Of a DNA stretch of 64,000 bases, positions 18,367 through 61,372 are shown piece after piece (position 1 is the stretch's first letter; each line of letters starts with the position of its first letter). This DNA comes from an uncultured Alphaproteobacteria bacterium (GTDB lineage: Bacteria; Pseudomonadota; Alphaproteobacteria; Rs-D84): contig CANSHD010000002.1 in assembly GCA_947646585.1 (NCBI GenBank), forward strand, positions 136,997 through 200,996, given 5' to 3'. The notes under the pieces were generated by a model. The model made no database searches, was not told the DNA's origin, and was given only the letters and a program-made list of their open reading frames with translations. The translations under genes were made by a program, and so were the position numbers.

Positions 18367-18623
18367 ACAAGCGTGTGCTTTCAATATATAATTTATTACG
18401 TCGGCGGGTGTTCCGTCGGCGGGGTGTCAGAACCTCTGCTTTGGCGTCAGACAAAAGTGGCGCGACGCGCCTTTTTTGATATGACGAAAAACAAACTCCT
18501 GAACCGCGGGTCAGGAGGGTTGCGAATATATTGAATAAGCACACAATTCCAAAGATTGTTCTGAACCTCCTGACCACCAAATTTTGGTGGTTTTTTCGTT
18601 TCGAAAAACAGGAGAAAAGAATA
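18366..18623 (+). promoter_or_regulatory. Type A structured leader, copy 1: candidate riboswitch or attenuator
   Basis: Promoter-like tatataat, then three mutually exclusive hairpins. P1 is ctcctgaaccgcgggtcaggag (18497-18518). The antiterminator pairs ggtcaggagg with cctcctgacc (18567-18576). The terminator is ccaccaaattttggtgg followed by T6 (18576-18596), about 12 nt before the RBS caggag. The element is about 90% identical to 60599..60865. Confidence 0.65.
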
Positions 18624-19112
18624 ATGAAACCAAAACTTTTTATGTCGGTCATATTATGTTCGACCGCCGTTAATACATGTTACGCACTTGGTACCACAAA
18701 ACTGTGCTGTGATATGGTCCATGTGGAGGGGAGGCCATGTAAATGTTATGCAGACTCGTCCGGCAGTTGTGCGCACTGCTCTGTCAGTGGCGGTGGTTGT
18801 ACAGACTGTGACAGTACCGATTGGGCGCCGACCGGCACCGCCGGATATGAATCCAGAATCAACGCGCTGTGCATGCTTATGACCGGAAAGTGCAACAAAA
18901 CGACAGAATATCGGTGCGCCGCCGGGTATTATGGGAAAAGCATGAACGGAACGTCCGGGTGTACGCGCTGTCCGTCGTCGGGCGGCGTATATGGTACAAA
19001 TACGGCCGGCGAGAATACCGACATAACGTCGTGCTGTATCCCTGCGAACAGGACAATGACCGATACAAAGGGAACATTTACGTTTACCGATGAATGCTGT
19101 TATTCAAATTAA
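18624..19112 (+). CDS. Small secreted Cys-rich protein, family member A1 (GCC2/GCC3 or ephrin-receptor-like C-terminal module)
   Basis: Signal peptide MKPKLFMSVILCSTAVNTCYA. Conserved C-terminal EYRCAAGYYG..NGTSGCTRCPSSGGVYGT...C shared with five paralogs in the window. Confidence 0.7.
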   Translation: MKPKLFMSVILCSTAVNTCYALGTTKLCCDMVHVEGRPCKCYADSSGSCAHCSVSGGGCTDCDSTDWAPTGTAGYESRINALCMLMTGKCNKTTEYRCAAGYYGKSMNGTSGCTRCPSSGGVYGTNTAGENTDITSCCIPANRTMTDTKGTFTFTDECCYSN

Positions 19113-24003: not shown

Positions 24004-24029
24004 AAAAAACGCCATGCGGCGTTTTTTTA
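24004..24029. terminator. Bidirectional terminator
   Basis: aaaaaacgccatgcggcgttttttt. Confidence 0.6.
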
Positions 24030-24662
24030 ATTTTTGTAATAGCAGTCGCCGGTATAAGTGCCGGAGCCAGCGGCGTCACTGAACGCGGTTCCCGATGGCA
24101 GATAGCATGCGGTTATGGCCGTGCTGCCTGCGGCGGACGTGCCGTAAATGCCGCCGGATGCCGGACAGCGCGTACAGCCGGACGTGCCGTTTGACGTTGT
24201 GCCGTAATATCCCGCCGCACAGCGGTATTCCGTGCCGGTGGTTAACGTACCGTTGCAACTGCATTTCTTGACGGTGCGCTTTTCATATCCGGTACTGTGT
24301 GCCGTCCATGCGCCCGTGCTTGCGCCGCTGCAGCTTTTGCATTTCGCACAGCGGTTGTTTATACAGCCATATGATATACTGCCGCCACAGTCGCTGTCGG
24401 AATAGCAGCCGCATGTGAATGTAATTGTTTTGTTGAACTGTGCGTCAATACAGTTGCATGAATATGACCCTCCTTTGCCGCTGCCGCACATGAATGTGCC
24501 CAGGGTATCATCCCATGTCTCGTCCAGACAGGCGCCGGTATCGCATATGCAACTGCCGCTGCCACCGTCCGAGCATGGAATGTTATATCCGTCGTATGCG
24601 CTTGCGGTCGCATTTATACATATTGCGCCCAGCGCTCCGATAAACACTGCCTTTGTATTCAT
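24027..24662 (-). CDS. Secreted Cys-rich protein, family member B1 (211 aa)
   Basis: Signal peptide. C-terminal TEYRCAAGYYGTTSNGTSGCTRCPASGGIYGTSAAGSTAITACYLPSGTAFSDAAGSGTYTGDCYYKN, nearly identical to the C-terminus of 25860..26363. Confidence 0.7.
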   Translation of the reverse strand: MNTKAVFIGALGAICINATASAYDGYNIPCSDGGSGSCICDTGACLDETWDDTLGTFMCGSGKGGSYSCNCIDAQFNKTITFTCGCYSDSDCGGSISYGCINNRCAKCKSCSGASTGAWTAHSTGYEKRTVKKCSCNGTLTTGTEYRCAAGYYGTTSNGTSGCTRCPASGGIYGTSAAGSTAITACYLPSGTAFSDAAGSGTYTGDCYYKN

Positions 24663-24950
24663 TATCCCAACTCCTTTTTTCCTTTTGTGTTGATAAAGAA
24701 AAAAACCGCCAAGGAAATGGCGGTCGGGGAGTTAAGAAAATCATAATTGAAAATGACCCCGGCGGTCTTTGGGCGCGTATGCGCCCTGTTCTATAACCGA
24801 CGGCTCCCCGACCGGTTAAGGACAGGGTATGTACAATAAAAGGCGCCAATGCGCCGCAACTGTACCTTGCGGATTCAGCCGGTTGCCCGACCGTTCAATT
24901 ATGGGTTTTCTTACGACCCCGAACCCAATATCCCTTTGGATTCGTTTATG
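24663..24950 (-). promoter_or_regulatory. Type B structured leader, copy 1 (inverted relative to 25560..25859)
   Basis: The reverse complement aligns with 25560-25859 at about 85-90% identity. It carries the same hairpins: ccccga/tcgggg, ggtcggggag/ctccccgacc, and the terminator accgccatttccttggcggtttt. Confidence 0.6.
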
Positions 24951-25018
24951 ATTATAAATTATGCGGGCGGGGTTTGCAATATAAAAACACCCGCCGGACG
25001 GCGGGTGCAATCGTGTGT

Positions 25019-25474
25019 TTATCGCGGGATGATTCTGGCGCGGTCGCCATAATTCGCGTCCAGGACATACACCGCCTGGCCGACCGAGAATTTTACGTCG
25101 GCGCCCTGGGTTAATGTAATCGCCTTGCCGGTGTCCAGTTTTACGATATATTCATATCCGTTTTGTGCGGACAGGCCTTCCTGGGCCTTGGCACCCAACG
25201 CGCCGCCCAAAACCGCGCCGCCAACCGCGCCGATAATGTTCACCGCGCTGTTGCCGCCAATCATGGAACCGGCCGCCCCGCCCGCGATTCCGCCGGCCAG
25301 CGACCCGACGCCGCCGTTTTCGGTTGCAACGCGAACCTCGCGCACGTTGATAATGGTGCCCTCTTGTACAGAGTTAATCTGTCCCGTGGCCGATGTCTGA
25401 TAACGGTTTGTATCCAAATTCGCCGCGCATGCGGTTAATGCAACGGTGCAAAATATAGCCAGAACTTTTTTCAT
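25019..25474 (-). CDS. Outer-membrane lipoprotein, SlyB / 17-kDa-antigen-like glycine zipper
   Basis: Lipobox LTAC. Gly-zipper GSLAGGIAGGAAGSMIGG...GAVGGAVLGGALG. Confidence 0.7.
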   Translation of the reverse strand: MKKVLAIFCTVALTACAANLDTNRYQTSATGQINSVQEGTIINVREVRVATENGGVGSLAGGIAGGAAGSMIGGNSAVNIIGAVGGAVLGGALGAKAQEGLSAQNGYEYIVKLDTGKAITLTQGADVKFSVGQAVYVLDANYGDRARIIPR

Positions 25475-25559
25475 TTATTCGCTCCTTTTCTGATAAAATT
25501 ATAGCCGTGTTTTTATGTGATTGCAACCGACAAAAAATCACCGTATTTTAGATTGCCTT

Positions 25560-25859
25560 TATCGTGGTTATGCGCTATAATCTGCCTGAATTCAATAGGG
25601 ATATTGGATTCGGGGTCGTCAAAAAGCCCACACAAAAGCGGTATGTGAACGCATGCTGTATCCGCATATATTGCGGCGCGATTGCGCCCTTTATTGTATA
25701 TGCCCCGATTTTAACAGGTCGGGGAGCCGTCGGTTATATAACAGGACGCCATGCGTCCAAAGACCGCCGGGGTCATTCTTTTGTGTGATTTTTTGAACTC
25801 CCCGACCGCCATTTCCTTGGCGGTTTTGTGTTTGATATAAAACCAAGGGGTCAAAAATC
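25560..25859 (+). promoter_or_regulatory. Type B structured leader, copy 2
   Basis: Contains hairpin ggacgccatgcgtcc. The antiterminator pairs ggtcggggag with ctccccgacc. The terminator is accgccatttccttggcgg followed by a T-run, about 25 nt before the ATG. Confidence 0.6.
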
Positions 25860-26363
25860 ATGAAAAAATTAACAACATCGGTATTGCTGGTTTTCGCCGG
25901 TATGTTGGGCGATGCGCATGCTGAGTTTAGCTGCTGTGGCGGTGCCAATGTGCCGGTTGGTGCGAATCCGACATACGACAGCAGCTGTACAACCAAGGTC
26001 AGTGGCGAAACATTGTTTGATAATGCGGGATGCTGCGCCTCCGGTTCGATAACCAGTACGACAAATGGTGTCATATCGACCAGAACATGTACAACAAGAG
26101 CCAGTTATAACAGTTTAACGAATACGGTCAGTGCAATCTGTAGTTGCGGTACGGCAACATATAAATGTGCGGTTGGATATTATGGCAGTCCAAAGAATGC
26201 CTCATCGGGTTGTACGCGATGCCCGGCGTCGGGCGGTGTTTACGGTACCACGGCCGCGGCCGGCGCCACGTCAATAACCAAATGTTATCTGCCGTCCGGC
26301 ACGGCGTTCAGTGATACCGCCGGCAGTGGCGAATACACCGGAAACTGTTATTATGTTGAGTGA
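25860..26363 (+). CDS. Secreted Cys-rich protein, family member B2 (167 aa)
   Basis: Signal peptide MKKLTTSVLLVFAGMLGDAHA. C-terminal module conserved with B1. Confidence 0.7.
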   Translation: MKKLTTSVLLVFAGMLGDAHAEFSCCGGANVPVGANPTYDSSCTTKVSGETLFDNAGCCASGSITSTTNGVISTRTCTTRASYNSLTNTVSAICSCGTATYKCAVGYYGSPKNASSGCTRCPASGGVYGTTAAAGATSITKCYLPSGTAFSDTAGSGEYTGNCYYVE

Positions 26364-29742: not shown

Positions 29743-30036
29743 CTATGAATAGTGACAGTTTTCTGTCAGAACATAATTGCCGGTTGTGTCGCTGTATTCT
29801 CCGGCCGGCATATAGCATGCGCCGATATCGGTGCTGTTCTCGTTGTCACTGGTCGGAGAGCCGTGTACTTCGTTGCTGCCGTTTGGGCGCGGTGGCGGAC
29901 ATTGGCGGCATGTATTGGTATCCGTAAGATAGTACTTGCTTTTGCACTTTGTGTAATAATTTGTAAGTGTCACGCACTCGGCGATTGCGGTTGTCGGAAT
30001 GATGGTTGCAATAATTATACAATATATTGTTTTCAT
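29743..30036 (-). CDS. Small secreted Cys-rich protein (97 aa), distant member of the family
   Basis: Signal peptide. C-terminal CRQCPPPRPNG...GACYMPAGEYSDTTGNYVLTENCHYS echoes the family C-terminus. Confidence 0.5.
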   Translation of the reverse strand: MKTIYCIIIATIIPTTAIAECVTLTNYYTKCKSKYYLTDTNTCRQCPPPRPNGSNEVHGSPTSDNENSTDIGACYMPAGEYSDTTGNYVLTENCHYS

Positions 30037-41453: not shown

Positions 41454-41575
41454 TTCCCCCGCCATACGGCGGGATTTTTTTGTGTAATTATTACTGGATT
41501 GCCGCGTCGGCGCAGGCGCCTCCTCGCAATGACAATGGGGATACAGAATAAAACAACCGCCCCCGCAGGGGCGGT

Positions 41576-41907
41576 GTGCAGATACACTATAAGCCGGATT
41601 CTGTACTGCCGCGGGCCCAGTCTTTTCACAACCACGCCCGGGTAGCGAACATAATTAATCTGCATTTCGTGTTGCCACGAATGTCAAGCCTTCTACCCGC
41701 CCCCAATCCTGGGACTGGTCACAGGGGGCCTATTTGAAGTTGCTGCGCATAGAGATTGGCCGTTTCACTCGAACTAAATCGATTCGTCACTGTTCCTCTA
41801 ATCGTCGGGTCGCCCCGCCCGGTCATTAGCCGGTATGCCGTCCCATGCAGTCCGGACTTTCCTCCGACCCATAAGGCCGGCTATGTTCCGTGCATCTTAC
41901 GCGTGCA
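41576..41907 (-). ncRNA. rnpB: RNase P RNA (bacterial type A, apparently reduced P12 region), followed by a terminator at 41549-41575
   Basis: The minus strand reads GGAAAGTCCGGACTGCATGGGACGGCATACCGGCTAATGACCGGGCGGGGCGACCCGACG ... CAAATAGG ... GGGTAGAAGGCTTGA ... ACAGAATCCGGCTTA. This tracks the E. coli M1 RNA P4/P5/P15 consensus. The 3' flank is accgcccctgcgggggcggt followed by a T-run. Confidence 0.8.
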
Positions 41908-42024
41908 ATACTAACAGCAATAAAAAAAAATTCAAATAAATTTGCGCCGCCGATATATTTTTTTGCTTGAACCGTTTCCATGATTTTTTCTATGATTAGT
42001 ATCAGAGAAAAAAAGTGGGGAATT

Positions 42025-45000
42025 ATGTCCAAAATTATACGCGTTTTTGCGTGCTTGTTCACGTTGTTTTTTGTAGGCTCAGCATATGCGGCGGGATATA
42101 CCTGTAATGATTTAAAGAAATACACGTCGTGTTCGTCCGGGTATTATATGACCAAGGGCGGTGTTTATAACGGCACAGCCCAGGTTGGCAATGCCTGTAC
42201 GGCGTGTGCGTCGGGCTGTACGTGCGCCGGCGGAACCGCGGCGCCGGTATGCGGCAAGACGTGTGCGGCGGGAACTTATTGGAACGGCAGTGCGTGCGCG
42301 ACATGTCCCAACGGATATTACTGTCCCGGATTTTCAAATGTTCAAAACCCGGAGACAAATTACGGGCGCAACGCGTGCCCGACCGCAAACTCGACAACTG
42401 CGGCGGCATCGTCGGCTTACCCGGATGTGTTTTATCCATATACGTCGACATCGGGTTCGGTGGATAAAACCACAGCGCCGACACGCAATTCAATCGGTAA
42501 TCAATCCTGGAACAGTTCTGGATCCGCCATTACGGATTGTAAGGCATATTATGGATTTAGTGGCGCCGGCGGTTATTTCCAAGCGGATAATGTGCGCTAT
42601 AATACCTCGACCGGCAAATACGATAACTTCTCCGGCGCTGATATATATTACAGCAGTGCCGTGGCCGGTTATTACCTGTACACCAAGTACAGCGATACAT
42701 ATTGCAACACAGGCACAAACCGCATGTTGTATAGAAAAGCGGTCGCCTGCCCTGCCGGGTCTTATTGCCCGGGCGGAAGTGTTCCGCAATGTAGTACCGG
42801 TACGCATAACAACGAATGGGGGCGTAATACTTGTCCGGCGGGTAAGTATTGTCCAGCCAAGTCTTCGGCAGGCACAAACTGTGCCGCCGGAACGTACCGC
42901 AGCGCGACAGGCGGTACCGCCGCCAGCAGCTGTACGGCATGTGCGATAGGTTCTTATAGTTCGGCCGGGGCGACCGGGTGTACGGCGTGTACCGGTGGCA
43001 AGACGACAACCGCCACGGGCCAGTTGTCATGTAACGCGACATGTACAAACGCCACCGGAGCCAGCACATGGACCGCCGCATCATGGTCGGCCAACAGTGT
43101 GACAAACAAGTGCGCAATTAATGCATGCGCGACCGGATACACCCGTGGCGGCACGGCCAGCAGTACCGGAACCAGCTCTTACACATGTTCGGCGAACTGT
43201 AATGCGATTACATTGAACGCAACGCAAAACGGCGGCAGCGGCACCGCAACGACGCTGTATAAAAAGTCCGGCTCAACAACGTGGTACAGCAATAATGCCT
43301 GCTCTACTACGATAACCACCCTGTCGTCGCGCCCGACCAAGACGCACGCGACATATGCGGGACATTATAACACCCGCGCCGCATCCGGCGGGACGCAGTG
43401 CGTGACCGCGACGGGCGCGCTTAGCACCTCGACCTCTTGCAACGTAACGGGCGCAACCACTTTTTATCCGCAGTTTACATGTAATACGGGTTGGACCAAT
43501 GCGGGTACGCGCATTTCAGGGACATGTACGGCGACAACGAACACGATAACGCTGAACAAAAACGGCGGTACGGGTACTTGTGGCGGTCAAAGCGGCACAA
43601 CAAACGGCAGCACGACATGTACCACGGGCAGCACCAAGTCCCTGCCGACATGGGACAGTAGCAGCTGCAGCATAACCAACGGAAACGAGATATTTAAGGG
43701 CTGGTCCACCAGCAGCAGCGCAACCAGTGGTTCAACGTCCATAACATGTCCGACGGGCGCCGCGACATACTATGCCGCGTGGACGACGCCGACATGCAGT
43801 GCGACGAACGGAACATGCGCGATAACCACGCCCAGCAGTAATGCGCCGCGTGGGACGATAAGCTGCTCCATGGGATACAGCCAATCCGGTGGCACAAATC
43901 GCACAACCAGCTTTACCGTCACGGGTAGCGCGGGCGGTACCAGCGTGTCCGGGACATGTTATGCTGTGACCAGCACCGTATCGTTCAATCTGAACGGTGG
44001 CAGCGGCAACCAGCCGAACAATGTTACGGCCACATACGGCAGCAATATGCCGGCGCTTAGCACCAGTGCCAACCCGTCACGCACAGGATATACTTTCGGC
44101 GGTTGGTATGACACCAGCGCTGCAACCGGCGGAACCCAGTATTATAATACCAGCCGCGGTTCAGCGCGTACGTGGAACAAGACGGATGCCAGTGTGACGC
44201 TGTACGCGCGCTGGACCGCCAATACATTCACGGTTGTTTATAACCTGAACAATGGAACCGGGACGAAGCCGGCAAATAAAACTTGTACCTATAATAGCGC
44301 GTGTGCACTGGATGCCGGAACCGGTACGGGTTATTATCGTAACGGATATGTATTAAAGGGTTGGAGCACCACCAGCAGCGCAACGAGCGGCTCGTTCGAC
44401 GGCAAGAATTTAGCGGCCAGCGGCACTGTAAACGTGTATGCGGTATGGACGCCTTGCGGCGCCGGCACCGCCAAGGCCGCCGGCACCGCTGCGGCAACCA
44501 CATGTACGACCTGTGCGGCGGGTACATATACAAGCACAACGGCTCAGTCCAGCTGTGCGGTATGCAGTGGCAATACATATAACGCAGAAACAGGCAAGAC
44601 ATCTTGTAGCGCATGTCCAGATGGATACGGCATCAGTGGCACGGCGGCCGCAGACCATGATGCCAAGGGCGACTGTAAGATTAGCTGCTCGGGCGGTAAT
44701 CGTGTTGCGACATCTGACGCAAAGTGCACGACCAGTGCCGGAACCGGATACTATATTGCAAATCATACGGTATCTGCAGGCACTACGTCACCGGCGGCAA
44801 CGCAGTGCCCGGTCGGATATCGTGACGGCGCGGCGACAGATGACCAGGGCAAGTGTGTAATGAACGTTGTAAAGGGTAAGTACGTTGCCAAAGCTAATGA
44901 TGAAGCGGCAACCAAGTGTGCGGCTGGCACGGCAAGGACGGCGCATACTGTGACATATGGTAAAACATCGTCATGCAGTGCATGTACGGGGCGTACCAAG

Positions 45001-46248
45001 TGGAGTGCGGAAGGGGCTGAGACCTGCAGCACGGTGTCAAATGGGTACTATACTACGGGTTGCACGAATAACAACAACTGTACCGGCCAGTCACAGTGTA
45101 CAGGCGCAACATACTGCAGTGGGGGTGTTCAGAACAATTGTCCGGCGGCGGAAAGCACCTGGACCCTGGGGACGGGAACCGGTTGGTCGGCGGTCACCAG
45201 CTGCTTTGAAACAAAGGCGGCCACAGCGGTCAGCACATATTGCAGCGAGGGCCAGTTGAAGAAAAATGCGACCAACACGACAACATGGGGCGCGGCGACC
45301 ATATCAAGTGCCTTTAAGGCAAAGGCGGGTTCGATAGTGTCCGGTCAGACATGTACGCAGTGTACCGGCGCGACATACAGTGCGGGTGGCACGGTGACGG
45401 AATGCGCCGCCTGTCCGACAGGGTATGCGTCAAACACAACGGCGGGCAAGACAGTCGTCGGCCAGTGCCAGGCGTCATGTGCGGCGGGATATGCGGTACA
45501 GACTGCGAACGAGGCCTGCAAGATAGTCGCCAGCGGTTATCAGACCGGCACTCACGTCGTCAGCTATGGTTCCAAGACTCCGACGGCGGCGGACAGCACC
45601 AGCCCGGCGGCGGGAACATGGTACAGCTGTCTGACGAATTATAGCGCGTCCGGCACGGCGGCCACAGACCATGACGCGCGCAGCGACTGTAAAATAAGCT
45701 GCGGCGCCGGTACACGGATTGCGTCCGCGAACGCGACCAGCTGCACCACCCCCAGCGGGAACTGGTATGTCGGCGCGCACAGCGTCGCGGCAGGCAGCGC
45801 GTCGTCGGTCAGCAGCTGTCTGACGAACTATACAATTGGCGGTAGCGCGGCAACGGACCACGATGCGGCGGCGGATTGCAAGATAAGATGTGGCGGCGGT
45901 GCGTATGTTGCCAAGGCAAACGATACGTCCTGTACGAATGTCGGTGCGGGATACTGGGCGGCGGCCTCGACCGTGTCGCAGGGAAGTGCCGGCAGTCGTA
46001 CGGCATGCGCGTCGGGTCTGACGACAATCGGGTACGGTGCGGGCGCGGACGAGGCGGCGGATTGCGGTCATATCCTGCATCTGGGCGACAGCAAGCTGTA
46101 TCTGCGCAGTACGAAAAAGACCACGCCGTCGTTGAATGTAAAGATTGGCGACAGCACCTTCTATGGCAACATGAGTACGGCGACCAAGGGCAAGCTGCGC
46201 GTCAAGAAAGACAACACTACCTACAGTGTTCACGACGACAGCATGTAA
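42025..46248 (+). CDS. Giant secreted Cys-rich protein (about 1400 aa) with tandem CxxC...GxY (GCC2/GCC3 or ephrin-receptor-like) repeats and Listeria-Bacteroides (Flg_new) repeats
   Basis: Signal peptide MSKIIRVFACLFTLFFVGSAYA. Many repeats of the form C.AGTY....G....C..C. The segments TGYTFGGWYDTSAATGG...VTLYARWT and YVLKGWSTTSS...VNVYAVWT match the Flg_new pattern. Confidence 0.75.
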   Translation: MSKIIRVFACLFTLFFVGSAYAAGYTCNDLKKYTSCSSGYYMTKGGVYNGTAQVGNACTACASGCTCAGGTAAPVCGKTCAAGTYWNGSACATCPNGYYCPGFSNVQNPETNYGRNACPTANSTTAAASSAYPDVFYPYTSTSGSVDKTTAPTRNSIGNQSWNSSGSAITDCKAYYGFSGAGGYFQADNVRYNTSTGKYDNFSGADIYYSSAVAGYYLYTKYSDTYCNTGTNRMLYRKAVACPAGSYCPGGSVPQCSTGTHNNEWGRNTCPAGKYCPAKSSAGTNCAAGTYRSATGGTAASSCTACAIGSYSSAGATGCTACTGGKTTTATGQLSCNATCTNATGASTWTAASWSANSVTNKCAINACATGYTRGGTASSTGTSSYTCSANCNAITLNATQNGGSGTATTLYKKSGSTTWYSNNACSTTITTLSSRPTKTHATYAGHYNTRAASGGTQCVTATGALSTSTSCNVTGATTFYPQFTCNTGWTNAGTRISGTCTATTNTITLNKNGGTGTCGGQSGTTNGSTTCTTGSTKSLPTWDSSSCSITNGNEIFKGWSTSSSATSGSTSITCPTGAATYYAAWTTPTCSATNGTCAITTPSSNAPRGTISCSMGYSQSGGTNRTTSFTVTGSAGGTSVSGTCYAVTSTVSFNLNGGSGNQPNNVTATYGSNMPALSTSANPSRTGYTFGGWYDTSAATGGTQYYNTSRGSARTWNKTDASVTLYARWTANTFTVVYNLNNGTGTKPANKTCTYNSACALDAGTGTGYYRNGYVLKGWSTTSSATSGSFDGKNLAASGTVNVYAVWTPCGAGTAKAAGTAAATTCTTCAAGTYTSTTAQSSCAVCSGNTYNAETGKTSCSACPDGYGISGTAAADHDAKGDCKISCSGGNRVATSDAKCTTSAGTGYYIANHTVSAGTTSPAATQCPVGYRDGAATDDQGKCVMNVVKGKYVAKANDEAATKCAAGTARTAHTVTYGKTSSCSACTGRTKWSAEGAETCSTVSNGYYTTGCTNNNNCTGQSQCTGATYCSGGVQNNCPAAESTWTLGTGTGWSAVTSCFETKAATAVSTYCSEGQLKKNATNTTTWGAATISSAFKAKAGSIVSGQTCTQCTGATYSAGGTVTECAACPTGYASNTTAGKTVVGQCQASCAAGYAVQTANEACKIVASGYQTGTHVVSYGSKTPTAADSTSPAAGTWYSCLTNYSASGTAATDHDARSDCKISCGAGTRIASANATSCTTPSGNWYVGAHSVAAGSASSVSSCLTNYTIGGSAATDHDAAADCKIRCGGGAYVAKANDTSCTNVGAGYWAAASTVSQGSAGSRTACASGLTTIGYGAGADEAADCGHILHLGDSKLYLRSTKKTTPSLNVKIGDSTFYGNMSTATKGKLRVKKDNTTYSVHDDSM

Positions 46249-60568: not shown

Positions 60569-60598
60569 CAAATGCCCCGAACGGGGCATTTTTATTTC
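60569..60598 (+). terminator. Intrinsic terminator, duplicate of the one at 18338
   Basis: aaatgccccgaacggggcatttttatttc. Confidence 0.7.
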
Positions 60599-60865
60599 TT
60601 GTTTTTGCGGCCCGTATATTATATACTGAGAATGTCGGCGAGAGTTTCGCCGACGGGGTGTCAGAACCTCTGCTTACGCGTCGTTGATTGGTGGCGCATT
60701 GCGCCTGTTTTTATATCGCGACGAAAAACAAACTCCTGAACCGCGGGTCAGGAGGGATGCGAATATACTGAATAAGCACACAATTCGTAAGATTGTTCTG
60801 AACCTCCTGACCACTCAAATTTTGGGTGGTTTTTCATTTCGAAAAAAATACAGGAGACAAGAATA
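60599..60865 (+). promoter_or_regulatory. Type A structured leader, copy 2
   Basis: -10-like tatattat. P1 is ctcctgaaccgcgggtcaggag (60733-60754). The antiterminator pairs ggtcaggagg with cctcctgacc (60803-60812). The terminator is accactcaaattttgggtggt followed by T5. RBS caggaga. Confidence 0.65.
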
Positions 60866-61372
60866 ATGAGATTAAAACTTTTTCTGCCGGTCATATTGTG
60901 TTTGACCGTGTTTAACCATGCCATGGGTGCCACAAGTGTATGTTGCGACCAAAAAGTTATAGATGGGCAGCCTTGCCAATGCTATTCTGATGCGACCGGC
61001 AGCTGTGCTGGCTGCAGTAGTGCATCAGGGAGTGGTTGCACAAACTGTACCGGTACGGATTGGACGCCGGCCAGTACCACCGGGTACGAGTCTAGAAAAA
61101 AAGCGATATGTATGACGGGAAGCTGCTCTCAGTTACTTGAGTTTAGGTGTTCCGCGGGCTATTATGGCGAAAGTACTAATGGAACGTCTGGTTGTACACG
61201 GTGTCCAAGGCTTCTTGGTAAAAGTTTTTGGGTGTATGGTATTTCGCCGGCCGGTGCCGCTGCAATAACACAGTGCTATTTCCCAAAGGGCACAACAAAT
61301 GACACCGGCCCCTTGGACCAAAGTGGGACATATGTTTTTACTGCTGATTGTTATTACAACGGCGGGCTTTGA
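60866..61372 (+). CDS. Secreted Cys-rich protein, family member A2 (168 aa)
   Basis: Aligns along its full length with A1 (18624..19112). The conserved C-terminal module carries an RLLGKSFW insertion. Confidence 0.7.
   Translation: MRLKLFLPVILCLTVFNHAMGATSVCCDQKVIDGQPCQCYSDATGSCAGCSSASGSGCTNCTGTDWTPASTTGYESRKKAICMTGSCSQLLEFRCSAGYYGESTNGTSGCTRCPRLLGKSFWVYGISPAGAAAITQCYFPKGTTNDTGPLDQSGTYVFTADCYYNGGL

Follow-up and report, generated by a model that had tools for sequence, protein, structure and literature searches.

A family of structured leader RNAs with two predicted alternative folds ahead of genes for cysteine-rich proteins in Rs-D84 Alphaproteobacteria

The question raised by this locus is why two similar stretches of non-coding DNA should flank a small 'slyB-like' lipoprotein gene in inverted orientation, each running directly into a gene for a cysteine (Cys)-rich protein. 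The locus, positions 24,663 to 25,859, lies in a stretch of 64,000 nucleotides (nt) from an uncultured alphaproteobacterium of the order Rs-D84 (assembly GCA_947646585.1, contig CANSHD010000002.1, positions 136,997 to 200,996 of the forward strand), which is referred to here as the window. An earlier note on this DNA had proposed that the two arms encode leader RNAs of a second type (type B), related to a first (type A) elsewhere in the window, that attenuation operates through their conserved structure, and that recombination between the arms could invert the intervening gene. The RNA structure and the attenuation appear largely right; the architecture as described was incomplete, and the inversion is unsupported. 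The leader is an undescribed family of a known mechanistic kind, tied to an existing Rfam family, that of the small RNA (sRNA) sRNA-Xcc1. It is interpreted here, with a probability of roughly 0.6, as a cis-acting two-state RNA switch, a riboswitch-like attenuator that is off by default and acts on premature termination and probably on ribosome access too.

The paired leaders and their two folds

A local blastn search of the window with the plus-strand leader, B2, finds a single strong second copy: 25576-25856 aligns with 24956-24675 on the opposite strand (76.3% identity over 287 columns, E = 3.9e-53), in agreement with the inverted copies previously described, and in a repeat search the arms share three inverted blocks without gaps, which are 84, 79 and 39 nt long and 84-85% identical. 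The arms point outwards, and each terminates at the start codon of its own Cys-rich open reading frame (ORF): 24027..24662 (-), of 211 amino acids (aa), for leader B1 and 25860..26363 (+), of 167 aa, for leader B2, so the position directly 5' of divergent Cys-rich genes also stands. The repeat takes in the sigma-70-like promoters as well, at 24979..24951 (-) and 25553..25581 (+), which were absent from the earlier account. Hence each arm is a complete unit, because it has its own promoter, leader, terminator and Shine-Dalgarno (SD) site. The transcribed leaders are approximately 282 nt (B1) and 272 nt (B2) long, and their folding z-scores relative to shuffled sequences (-6.3 and -5.7, within a range of -4.9 to -6.3 for the four leaders of the window) support their being structured. 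Their parts, in transcribed order, are as follows.

Leader B1
24951..24979 (-): promoter-like site TTGCAA-17-TATAAT, 10/12 matches in a consensus scan
near 24944 (-): putative transcription start, placed from the promoter-like site
24921..24943 (-): hairpin Pa at the RNA 5' end, GAAUCCAA / UUGGGUUC, from folding
24917-24920 (-): GGGG, preceding the P1 5' strand
24906-24913 (-): P1 5' strand UAAGAAAA, from covariation
24894..24903 (-): P2 5' strand CAUAAUUGAA, partner 24742-24751, from folding and covariation
24887-24893 with 24876-24882 (-): hairpin P3, 6/7 pairs with changes on both sides
24842-24855 (-): hairpin P4, GGCGC-AUUG-GCGCC, then UUUUAUUGUA, terminator-like in the scan
24823-24827 (-): s1 (CCCUG), competitor for s2 (anti-antiterminator strand), from its complementarity to s2
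24804-24813 (-): s2 (GGUCGGGGAG; ggtcggggag), SD-like switching strand with s1 or s3 as partner, from covariation
24796-24803 with 24759-24766 (-): P5, internal loop UUAUAGAACAGG...CCAAAG, part of the Xcc1-like junction, from covariation
24753-24757 with 24740-24744 (-): P6, its loop being the P2 3' strand (24742-24751), from covariation
24733-24740 (-): P1 3' strand, from covariation
24722-24731 (-): s3 (CUCCCCGACC; ctccccgacc), from covariation
24699..24725 (-): intrinsic terminator GACCGCCA-UUUCCU-UGGCGGUU and U-run, from the scan and covariation
24671-24676 (-): SD site AAGGAG, from sequence
24660-24662 (-): start codon of ORF 24027..24662

Leader B2
25553..25581 (+): promoter-like site TTGCCT-17-TATAAT, from the consensus scan
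near 25588 (+): putative transcription start, placed from the promoter-like site
25588..25611 (+): hairpin Pa, GAAUUCAAUA / UAUUGGAUUC, from folding
25612-25615 (+): GGGG, from covariation
25619-25625 (+): P1 5' strand UCAAAAA, from folding and covariation
25627-25629 (+): local CCC, from folding and covariation
25629-25638 (+): P2 5' strand CACACAAAAG, from folding and covariation
25639-25645 with 25652-25658 (+): hairpin P3, from folding
25675-25688 (+): hairpin P4, GGCGCGAUUGCGCC, from folding; terminator-like in the scan
25703-25708 (+): s1 (CCCCGA), from its complementarity to s2
25717-25726 (+): s2 (ggtcggggag), in the Xcc1-like junction
25727-25734 with 25763-25770 (+): P5, internal loop UUAUAUAACAGG / CCAAAG, in the Xcc1-like junction
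25772-25776 with 25785-25789 (+): P6, in the Xcc1-like junction
25778-25787 (+): P2 3' strand, in the Xcc1-like junction
25790-25796 (+): P1 3' strand, in the Xcc1-like junction
25798-25807 (+): s3 (ctccccgacc), in the Xcc1-like junction
25804..25827 (+): intrinsic terminator GACCGCCA-UUUCCU-UGGCGGUU, then UUGUGUUU, from the scan
25845-25850 (+): SD site AAGGGG, from sequence
25860-25862 (+): start codon of ORF 25860..26363

Two folds can be drawn on these parts. In Fold I, the proposed default (off) state, the 5' part of the leader would lie on the 3' part through P1 and P2, the 5' GGGG would pair with the CCCC of s3, and s1 with s2. In Fold II, the proposed on state, s2 would instead pair with s3 and close a three-way junction, comprising P5 with its kept internal loop and P6, that resembles sRNA-Xcc1. 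In the former, one part of s3 goes to the 5' GGGG and another to the terminator stem; in the latter, s3 lies on s2. The GGGG and P1 5' strand of B1 have as alternatives either the local CCC (24903-24905) or the long-range partner 24733-24740 together with the CCCC of s3; across the family the local partner is CCC/CCUC. The folds are mutually exclusive for three reasons: s1 and s3 are both complementary to s2, P6 has the P2 3' strand as its loop, and P6 is joined to s3 by the P1 3' strand. A pseudoknot in which P1/P2 and s2:s3 exist side by side was rejected on topological reasoning rather than by computation, as the 2-nt linker between the P1 3' strand and s3 would have to span approximately 18 base pairs (bp), and closure of P6 over a fully paired P2 3' strand was discarded on reasoning of the same kind.

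Relative to this arrangement, the earlier note had correctly identified s1:s2 (its 'P1'), s2:s3 (its 'antiterminator') and the terminator, and had missed both the long-range P1/P2 helices and the three-way junction. The strings it quoted, ggtcggggag, ctccccgacc and the terminator, occur in both arms, the last as GACCGCCATTTCCTTGGCGGTT followed by a T-run at 24725..24704 (-) and 25804..25825 (+); its hairpin 'ccccga/tcgggg' is literally present in B2 (25703-25708), whereas B1 has CCCUG/CGGGG (24823-24827).

Base pairs were counted on alignments of 47 type A leaders (A4) and 31 type B leaders (A3), drawn from the family described in the next section. The Fold I set comprised Pa, P1 with its GGGG extension, P2, P3, P5 and the terminator, together with P4 and s1:s2 in type A and P5b in type B; the Fold II set comprised the local hairpin, s2:s3, P5 and P6.

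Fold I, type A: 94.4% of cells paired; covariation 0.402; shuffled 0.169 (reached by 0/500); slid partners at most 0.092
Fold I, type B: 87.1% of cells paired; covariation 0.390; shuffled 0.184; slid partners at most 0.163
Fold II, type A: 93.4% of cells paired; covariation 0.268; shuffled 0.145
Fold II, type B: 87.9% of cells paired; covariation 0.289; shuffled 0.169

The contrast between covariation of 0.39-0.40 and control values of 0.17-0.18 (shuffled) or at most 0.16 (slid partners) supports the contention that selection acts on the RNA structure. A structure-free, all-against-all mutual-information scan draws its top pairs from P1, P2, Pa, P3, P5 and the terminator, and the first 11 pairs in type A all fall within modelled helices. 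The strongest covariation is that of the long-range P1 and P2, as in type A column 68/245 (GC17 CG12 AU11 UA7) and, for P1 in type B, columns 72/287 (AU14 CG13), 73/286 (GC15 AU12) and 67/292 (GC13 AU12); most pairs of type B P2 change on both sides, as do 7/8 pairs of Pa across the type B family. The terminator helix is paired in 94-95% of cells in both types, with exchange between GC and AU (type B column 300/316, GC15 AU13), and the -10 box is kept across the 31 type B leaders.

The switching strands show the same behaviour. In a joint alignment of the 78 switch domains s2:s3 is paired at 95.1%, and three of its positions alternate between AU and GC (42/29, 54/16 and 21/46), so the compensatory change between the types that had been claimed is indeed found in this helix. 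Among the Fold II helices of the 31 type B leaders, P5 has both-sided changes in 7/8 pairs, while s2:s3 is 93% and P6 96% paired. The competing helix s1:s2 is 99% paired in type A, and s1 is complementary to s2 in approximately 29/31 type B leaders. All three strands have changed together at least three times: between type A (CUCCUGA / GGUCAGGAGG / CCUCCUGACC) and type B (CCCCGA / GGUCGGGGAG / CUCCCCGACC), in locus L026 (CCCGGCC / GGCCGGG / CCCGGCC), and in L038, L039 and L003 (CUCCAA / GGUUGGAGG / CCUCCAACC). Furthermore, type B column 292, in s3, covaries both with s2 (GC16 AU7) and with the 5' GGGG/GGGA (GC13 AU12), as two alternative partners predict.

One covarying pair belongs to neither modelled fold: the base beside the 5' GGGG, on its 3' side in type A and its 5' side in type B, covaries with the base that opens the P6 5' strand (A4 columns 63/225, UA41 CG4; A3 columns 63/262, CG22 UA5), which could reflect either a tertiary contact or common descent. 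In addition, P4 of both types, which is longer in A, precedes a kept U-rich run (UUUUAUUGUA in B; UUUUAnUAU in A, A4 columns 105-135); this may be a place within the leader where transcription pauses or ends early.

The four leaders of the window were also folded under constraint, with the following energies in kcal/mol.

B1: Fold I -112.7; Fold II -107.1; minimum -114.5
B2: Fold I -107.4; Fold II -103.4; minimum -109.7
A1: Fold I -82.0; Fold II -78.9; minimum -85.2
A2: Fold I -78.3; Fold II -74.1; minimum -80.9

Fold I lies 1.8-3.2 kcal/mol from the minimum. On the full leader Fold II is less stable than Fold I by 3-6 kcal/mol; in transcripts ending before the terminator 3' arm the gap is 8.0 (B1), 6.8 (B2), 0.6 (A1) and 4.6 (A2) kcal/mol. 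When B1 and B2 are folded without constraint, P1, P2 and the terminator are already part of the minimum-energy structure, and in that of a longer B1 transcript the s3 region pairs with the SD site. That Fold I is at or near the minimum implies that termination would be the default and that Fold II would need extra stabilisation. As a test of the alternative helices envisaged earlier, the outcome is mixed: the fold with s1:s2 and the terminator is near the minimum, and s2:s3 is mostly about 3-8 kcal/mol worse, although nearly isoenergetic in truncated A1. These modelled energies fit a default-off switch that would require an effector.

The leader family and its likeness to sRNA-Xcc1

Two further leaders of the window, of type A, have the same architecture. 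Their junctions are recognised by R1, a model for which only the 31 type B junctions were used.

18398..18623 (+): type A leader A1, before Cys-rich ORF 18624..19112; R1 29.0 bits at 18509-18578
60632..60865 (+): type A leader A2, before Cys-rich ORF 60866..61372; R1 26.4 bits at 60746-60815

The view of type B as a variant on the type A architecture holds, since s1:s2, s2:s3 and the terminator occur in both with compensatory differences. Plain blastn of type B against type A returns nothing, and the relationship is visible solely through profiles, structure and the joint alignment. P5 has kept internal loops in type B, and is a short stem with a kept loop in type A.

No fewer than 386 relatives were found for the window's Cys-rich proteins, and all those with a source name come from metagenome-assembled genomes (MAGs) of uncultured Alphaproteobacteria. 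A scan of species-representative genomes yielded 79 loci. Nearly all of these come from gut MAGs that carry the label Alphaproteobacteria, Rickettsiales or Candidatus Enterousia; according to the literature, Enterousia and the order Rs-D84 are gut bacteria with genomes of 0.75-1.0 Mb. Using nhmmer profiles made from the window leaders, 78 full-length leaders were found in these loci, the 47 of type A and 31 of type B introduced above. This number is a lower bound, as a type B-like junction at L079 4973-5056 (-), scoring 54.5 bits with R1, was missed by the full-length filter. Counted over the fetched loci, single MAGs hold 8 and 10 copies. A Cys-rich family ORF lies directly 3', in the same orientation, for 72/78 leaders, and 4 of the other 6 are cut by the locus end. 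This association implies that the leader is a conserved, family-specific upstream element rather than a remnant of local duplication. Outside the window most leaders are single rather than arranged in inverted pairs.

At the gathering thresholds, Rfam models detect only RNase P RNA and tRNAs across the whole window and nothing in the leaders, which match no Rfam riboswitch or leader family. Below threshold, the type B leaders do resemble one family, sRNA-Xcc1 (RF02221). In the Rfam E-value mode, B2 is matched at 25717-25815 (+) with 34.4 bits (model positions 1-87) and B1 at 24714-24813 (-) with 32.2 bits (full model), both under the gathering threshold of 53 bits. The matched stretch is the junction closed by s2:s3, and the type B junctions have the RF02221 consensus fold of a closing helix, a hairpin A with an AUACAAnA / GAA internal loop, and a hairpin B. 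Across 12 other loci all 12 type B leaders present are matched in the same place and along the entire model, at 56.4 bits in L013, which is above threshold, 46.5 in L047, 42.0 in L064 and 31-36 in the other nine. The type A leaders have no Rfam match at all, RF02221 included, and no recurring sub-threshold Rfam family was seen for them in the 12 further loci.

The reverse comparison was made with R1 against four accepted sRNA-Xcc1 members (L080-L083; 69-73 bits with the Rfam model) from plasmid-collection records of Neisseria, Nitratidesulfovibrio, Aeromonas and Pseudomonas. Recognition proved reciprocal: R1 matches L081 with 45.6 bits (E = 2.5e-8), L082 with 35.8 and L083 with 27.4, at the positions scored by the Rfam model, and does not find L080. 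Within the window R1 detects the two type B junctions (B1 97.6 bits, B2 97.2 bits), the two type A junctions and nothing else; over all loci it detects 30 type B and 26 type A junctions, all at leader positions. Together, the R1 and Rfam cross-matches imply a chain of resemblance from Xcc1 through type B to type A.

The likeness extends to detail. Xcc1 shares with the type B junction a closing helix that is rich in G+C and 9-10 bp long, a hairpin A in which AUACAAnA lies opposite GAA/AAAG, hairpin B, a U-rich linker and a CC-rich tail, and in 3/4 examined members the strands of its closing helix are GGGAG / CUCCC, that is, SD-like and anti-SD-like. By contrast, the junction here is contained within a leader about three times longer, in which the upstream strands P1 5', P2 5' and s1 each complement a separate part of the junction and would unfold it. 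Such an upstream anti-junction domain was not seen by eye in the four genuine Xcc1 members, for which no systematic search was made. The leaders here are followed by a terminator with a U-run, whereas L081, L082 and L083 have no U-run; in the Aeromonas member a CCACCAU..AUGGUGG hairpin similar to the leader terminator comes after the element, again without one.

sRNA-Xcc1 was published as an integron-encoded, trans-acting sRNA of Xanthomonas campestris and has been so filed since 2011, yet it has also been described upstream of symE, in a preprint, and upstream of an ORF6N gene, in another paper. Three of the four members examined here have a same-strand ORF approximately 40-50 nt to the 3' side (hypothetical, ORF6N and Bro-N), and the fourth has a KilA-N ORF about 250 nt downstream. 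KilA-N, ORF6N and Bro-N are related DNA-binding domains typical of mobile elements. The short distance to a same-strand gene (symE, ORF6N or Bro-N) is thus a further likeness to the leaders, while the genes themselves differ: KilA-N, ORF6N, Bro-N and SymE proteins of mobile elements for Xcc1, and Cys-rich secreted proteins, in a gut alphaproteobacterium of reduced genome, here. The setting of the type B pair is chromosomal, and no integron is evident, although no search aimed at one was made. It is tentatively suggested that the Xcc1-like junction may be the sensor, an aptamer or protein site, of an undescribed riboswitch-like class, of which the Rs-D84 leaders would be the most elaborate form, with a 5' anti-junction domain and terminator added, and sRNA-Xcc1, a family widespread ahead of such mobile-element genes, the same cis element in minimal form. 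As Xcc1 members also lie just upstream of genes, this link offers a testable reinterpretation of a family annotated as a trans-acting sRNA. A literature survey covering sRNA-Xcc1, Xcc1 as a riboswitch, and Enterousia returned no description of the leader.

Mechanism and alternative explanations

Under the proposed mechanism, each arm would serve as promoter and leader of a gene for a secreted Cys-rich protein. In Fold I the intrinsic terminator would be complete, 32-36 nt ahead of the start codon in the type B arms, and this spacing is so short that the gene should be expressed by read-through only. Fold II would take 4 nt (GACC) from the terminator stem, permitting RNA polymerase to read through; it would also occupy the anti-SD stretch of s3, leaving the SD site free, so that a second layer of control at the level of translation may exist, with s3 as the anti-SD and s2 as an SD mimic. 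An effector, whether small molecule or protein, might act on the junction or the 5' domain, either stabilising Fold II or keeping the 5' strands off the junction.

The features expected of an attenuator are present: a terminator between promoter and start codon, an alternative helix on part of the terminator 5' arm (s3, through GACC), and a third segment, s1, that competes for and covaries with the antiterminator strand s2. As in riboswitch and attenuation leaders generally, s1, s2 and s3 are successive complementary segments with a terminator overlapping s3, the upstream domain is large and conserved, many copies per genome head one regulon-like set of genes, and termination is the predicted default. 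The competitor is unusually elaborate, as three upstream strands are set against three parts of the junction, rather than a single hairpin being involved. Ribosome-mediated, trp-type attenuation through a leader peptide was rejected, because no conserved leader ORF exists: type B has no positionally conserved ORF, and the ATG frequent in type A, which is in neither window copy, lies within the Pa stem and lacks an SD site, and the codons after it vary with the RNA pairing.

Several points weigh against a two-state switch. The helices specific to Fold II (s2:s3, P6 and the local GGGG/CCC hairpin) are nearly invariant, which means that few evolutionary events underlie their covariation support. 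In type B, moreover, 6/29 cells are unpaired at column 210/292 of s2:s3. The overlap of s2:s3 with the terminator stem is limited to the 4 nt (GACC) shared by the end of s3 and the start of the terminator, or 4/8 terminator pairs, so a shortened terminator (CGCCA/UGGCG) could still form beside s2:s3, and the degree to which the terminator would be destabilised is presumed rather than observed. Switching in vivo, and the stabilisation of Fold II by an effector, are likewise deduced from sequence, and the gene context points to no ligand or binding protein. Nor does the Xcc1 link by itself argue for a mechanism in cis, because members of that family are described as trans-acting and, in L080, a promoter-like site separates the element from the gene that follows.

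An alternative is that the leaders are free-standing sRNA genes acting in trans like the published sRNA-Xcc1, their place before Cys-rich genes being secondary. In its favour, every unit comes with a promoter and a strong terminator of its own; the 3' domain has kin in a family filed as trans-acting; there are approximately 8-10 copies per MAG; and, with Fold I and the terminator as the energy minimum, terminated transcripts of about 245 nt should be abundant. This explanation nevertheless seems unlikely, given that 72/78 copies stand directly 5' of one gene family in the same orientation, that the 32-36 nt before the start codon leave no room for a second promoter (the sole promoter-like match there overlaps the start codon), that s3 is complementary to the downstream SD site, and that Xcc1 members are themselves just upstream of same-strand genes. 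A dual role is possible, in which a cis attenuator also releases a trans-acting terminated product.

A structured 5' untranslated region with no effector switch, such as an RNA thermometer or an element tuning stability or translation, in which the balance of s2:s3 and s3:SD pairing sets a fixed or temperature-dependent level, would make sense of the SD mimicry of s2, the ability of the anti-SD s3 to pair with the real SD, the 5'-terminal hairpin Pa, the small fold gap in type A (0.6 kcal/mol in truncated A1) and the fact that the regulated genes hint at no metabolite. It would leave unexplained the conserved intrinsic terminator inside every leader copy, and two elaborate folds with about 50 conserved bp and conserved loop nucleotides exceed the usual needs of a thermometer or stabiliser, in hosts that moreover live in homeothermic guts; it is accordingly regarded as improbable.

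Readings at the level of DNA fare considerably worse. Two inverted arms of about 280 bp around a 0.6-kb segment have a geometry suited to inversion of the slyB-like gene or exchange of the Cys-rich promoters, as in phase or antigenic variation, the flanking genes belong to a multi-copy family resembling surface proteins, and the longest exact run common to the arms, 32 nt covering s3 and the terminator, would in principle be enough for homologous recombination. However, the inversion that had been suggested finds no support in the orientation of the slyB-like gene relative to the B2-type gene and tig, which is the same in all four genomes compared (the window, L001, L005 and L023), and L023 has this gene with one arm only. 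The arms are 71-75% identical within a genome, not the near-identity expected of an invertible segment (no search for recombinase genes was made), whereas orthologous arms are 85-98% identical between genomes. This implies that the arms are old paralogs evolving separately, without gene conversion. Most of the 78 leaders are solitary, and the covariation is of the RNA kind, with G-U pairs tolerated on the transcribed strand. Recombination between the arms is not impossible; nothing suggests that it has occurred, and a DNA-level device is very improbable. Mycoplasma variable lipoprotein genes form multi-copy surface families in reduced genomes, with conserved upstream regions and sometimes inverted pairs. 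The present system resembles these in its multi-copy secreted or surface proteins, its reduced genome and the conserved region upstream of each copy; unlike such families, which vary by DNA inversion, repeat slippage and recombination, the leaders show RNA-type covariation and a terminator, and no inversion in four genomes. The suggestion that the similarity is left over from a recent duplication, the leader having no function of its own, finds a basis in the paralogy of the flanking genes (45% identity), whose upstream regions would have been duplicated along with them. It is scarcely credible, as the leaders are kept across many species while the Cys-rich coding regions have diverged to 30-50% identity, dozens of compensatory base-pair changes and the covariation controls contradict it, and the folding z-scores fall between -4.9 and -6.3.

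Should the proposed cis-acting switch be correct, Rs-D84 bacteria, for all the small size of their genomes, keep at least 8-10 copies per MAG of a regulatory RNA of about 250 nt, all heading a single family of secreted Cys-rich proteins. These proteins would then be a set co-regulated under a single signal and probably central to the interaction of uncultured gut organisms with their surroundings. The approximately 80 natural variants of a two-state RNA, with evolutionary traces of both states, would also be useful for the study of RNA switches.

Neighbouring genes and minor features

The type B pair is situated between rpsA and tig, and the gene between its arms is a separate transcription unit outside the switch.

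25526..25498 (-): promoter of the slyB-like gene, from the consensus scan
25019..25474 (-): glycine-zipper lipoprotein gene ('slyB-like', 151 aa), an ORF between the arms
25008..24987 (-): terminator of the slyB-like gene, from the consensus scan

The label 'slyB-like' is based on a lipobox-like N-terminus (LTAC) read from the translation and on glycine-zipper Pfam matches below threshold (Rick_17kDa_Anti, 23.5 bits against a cutoff of 24.2).

The Cys-rich proteins have N-termini resembling signal peptides and contain 6-12% cysteine; the four in the window belong to no family in Pfam or NCBIfam. For the B2 protein, AlphaFold2 yields a weak model (mean pLDDT 65, with 77-88 in the C-terminal half), and a Foldseek search of the PDB with this weak model found nothing (best E 1.9). 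Further relatives detected by tblastn are a 97-aa ORF at 29743-30036 (-) and a long repeat-rich coding stretch at approximately 42000-46030 (+). No leader homolog was found before either, as nhmmer and R1 match the four leader positions of the window only.

A nearly identical terminator-like hairpin (AAAUGCCCCG-nn-CGGGGCAUUUUUAUUU, with a central loop of GUUC in one and GAAC in the other) lies ahead of the type A units at 18338-18365 and 60570-60597, implying that the duplicated block extends upstream of the promoter. Upstream of A1, the coding stretch 17600-18335 (+) is rich in Pro, Glu and Ala, with PEPEP-like repeats and a short Cys-rich tail (CCGDEVY...CCSQSSGDCYPPMF). A TTG-initiated ORF, 18531-19112 (+), crosses s3, the terminator and the SD site and continues in frame into the Cys-rich gene of A1, and at several other type A loci frames started by GTG or TTG open in the terminator 3' arm; these are probably chance openings in an A/U-rich spacer. 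Finally, the bacterial class A RNase P RNA of the window, at 41574-41899 (-) with 180.8 bits, wholly lacks one internal segment of 43 model positions and has an insertion near its 3' end; it is possibly a reduced form, as would suit the small genome.

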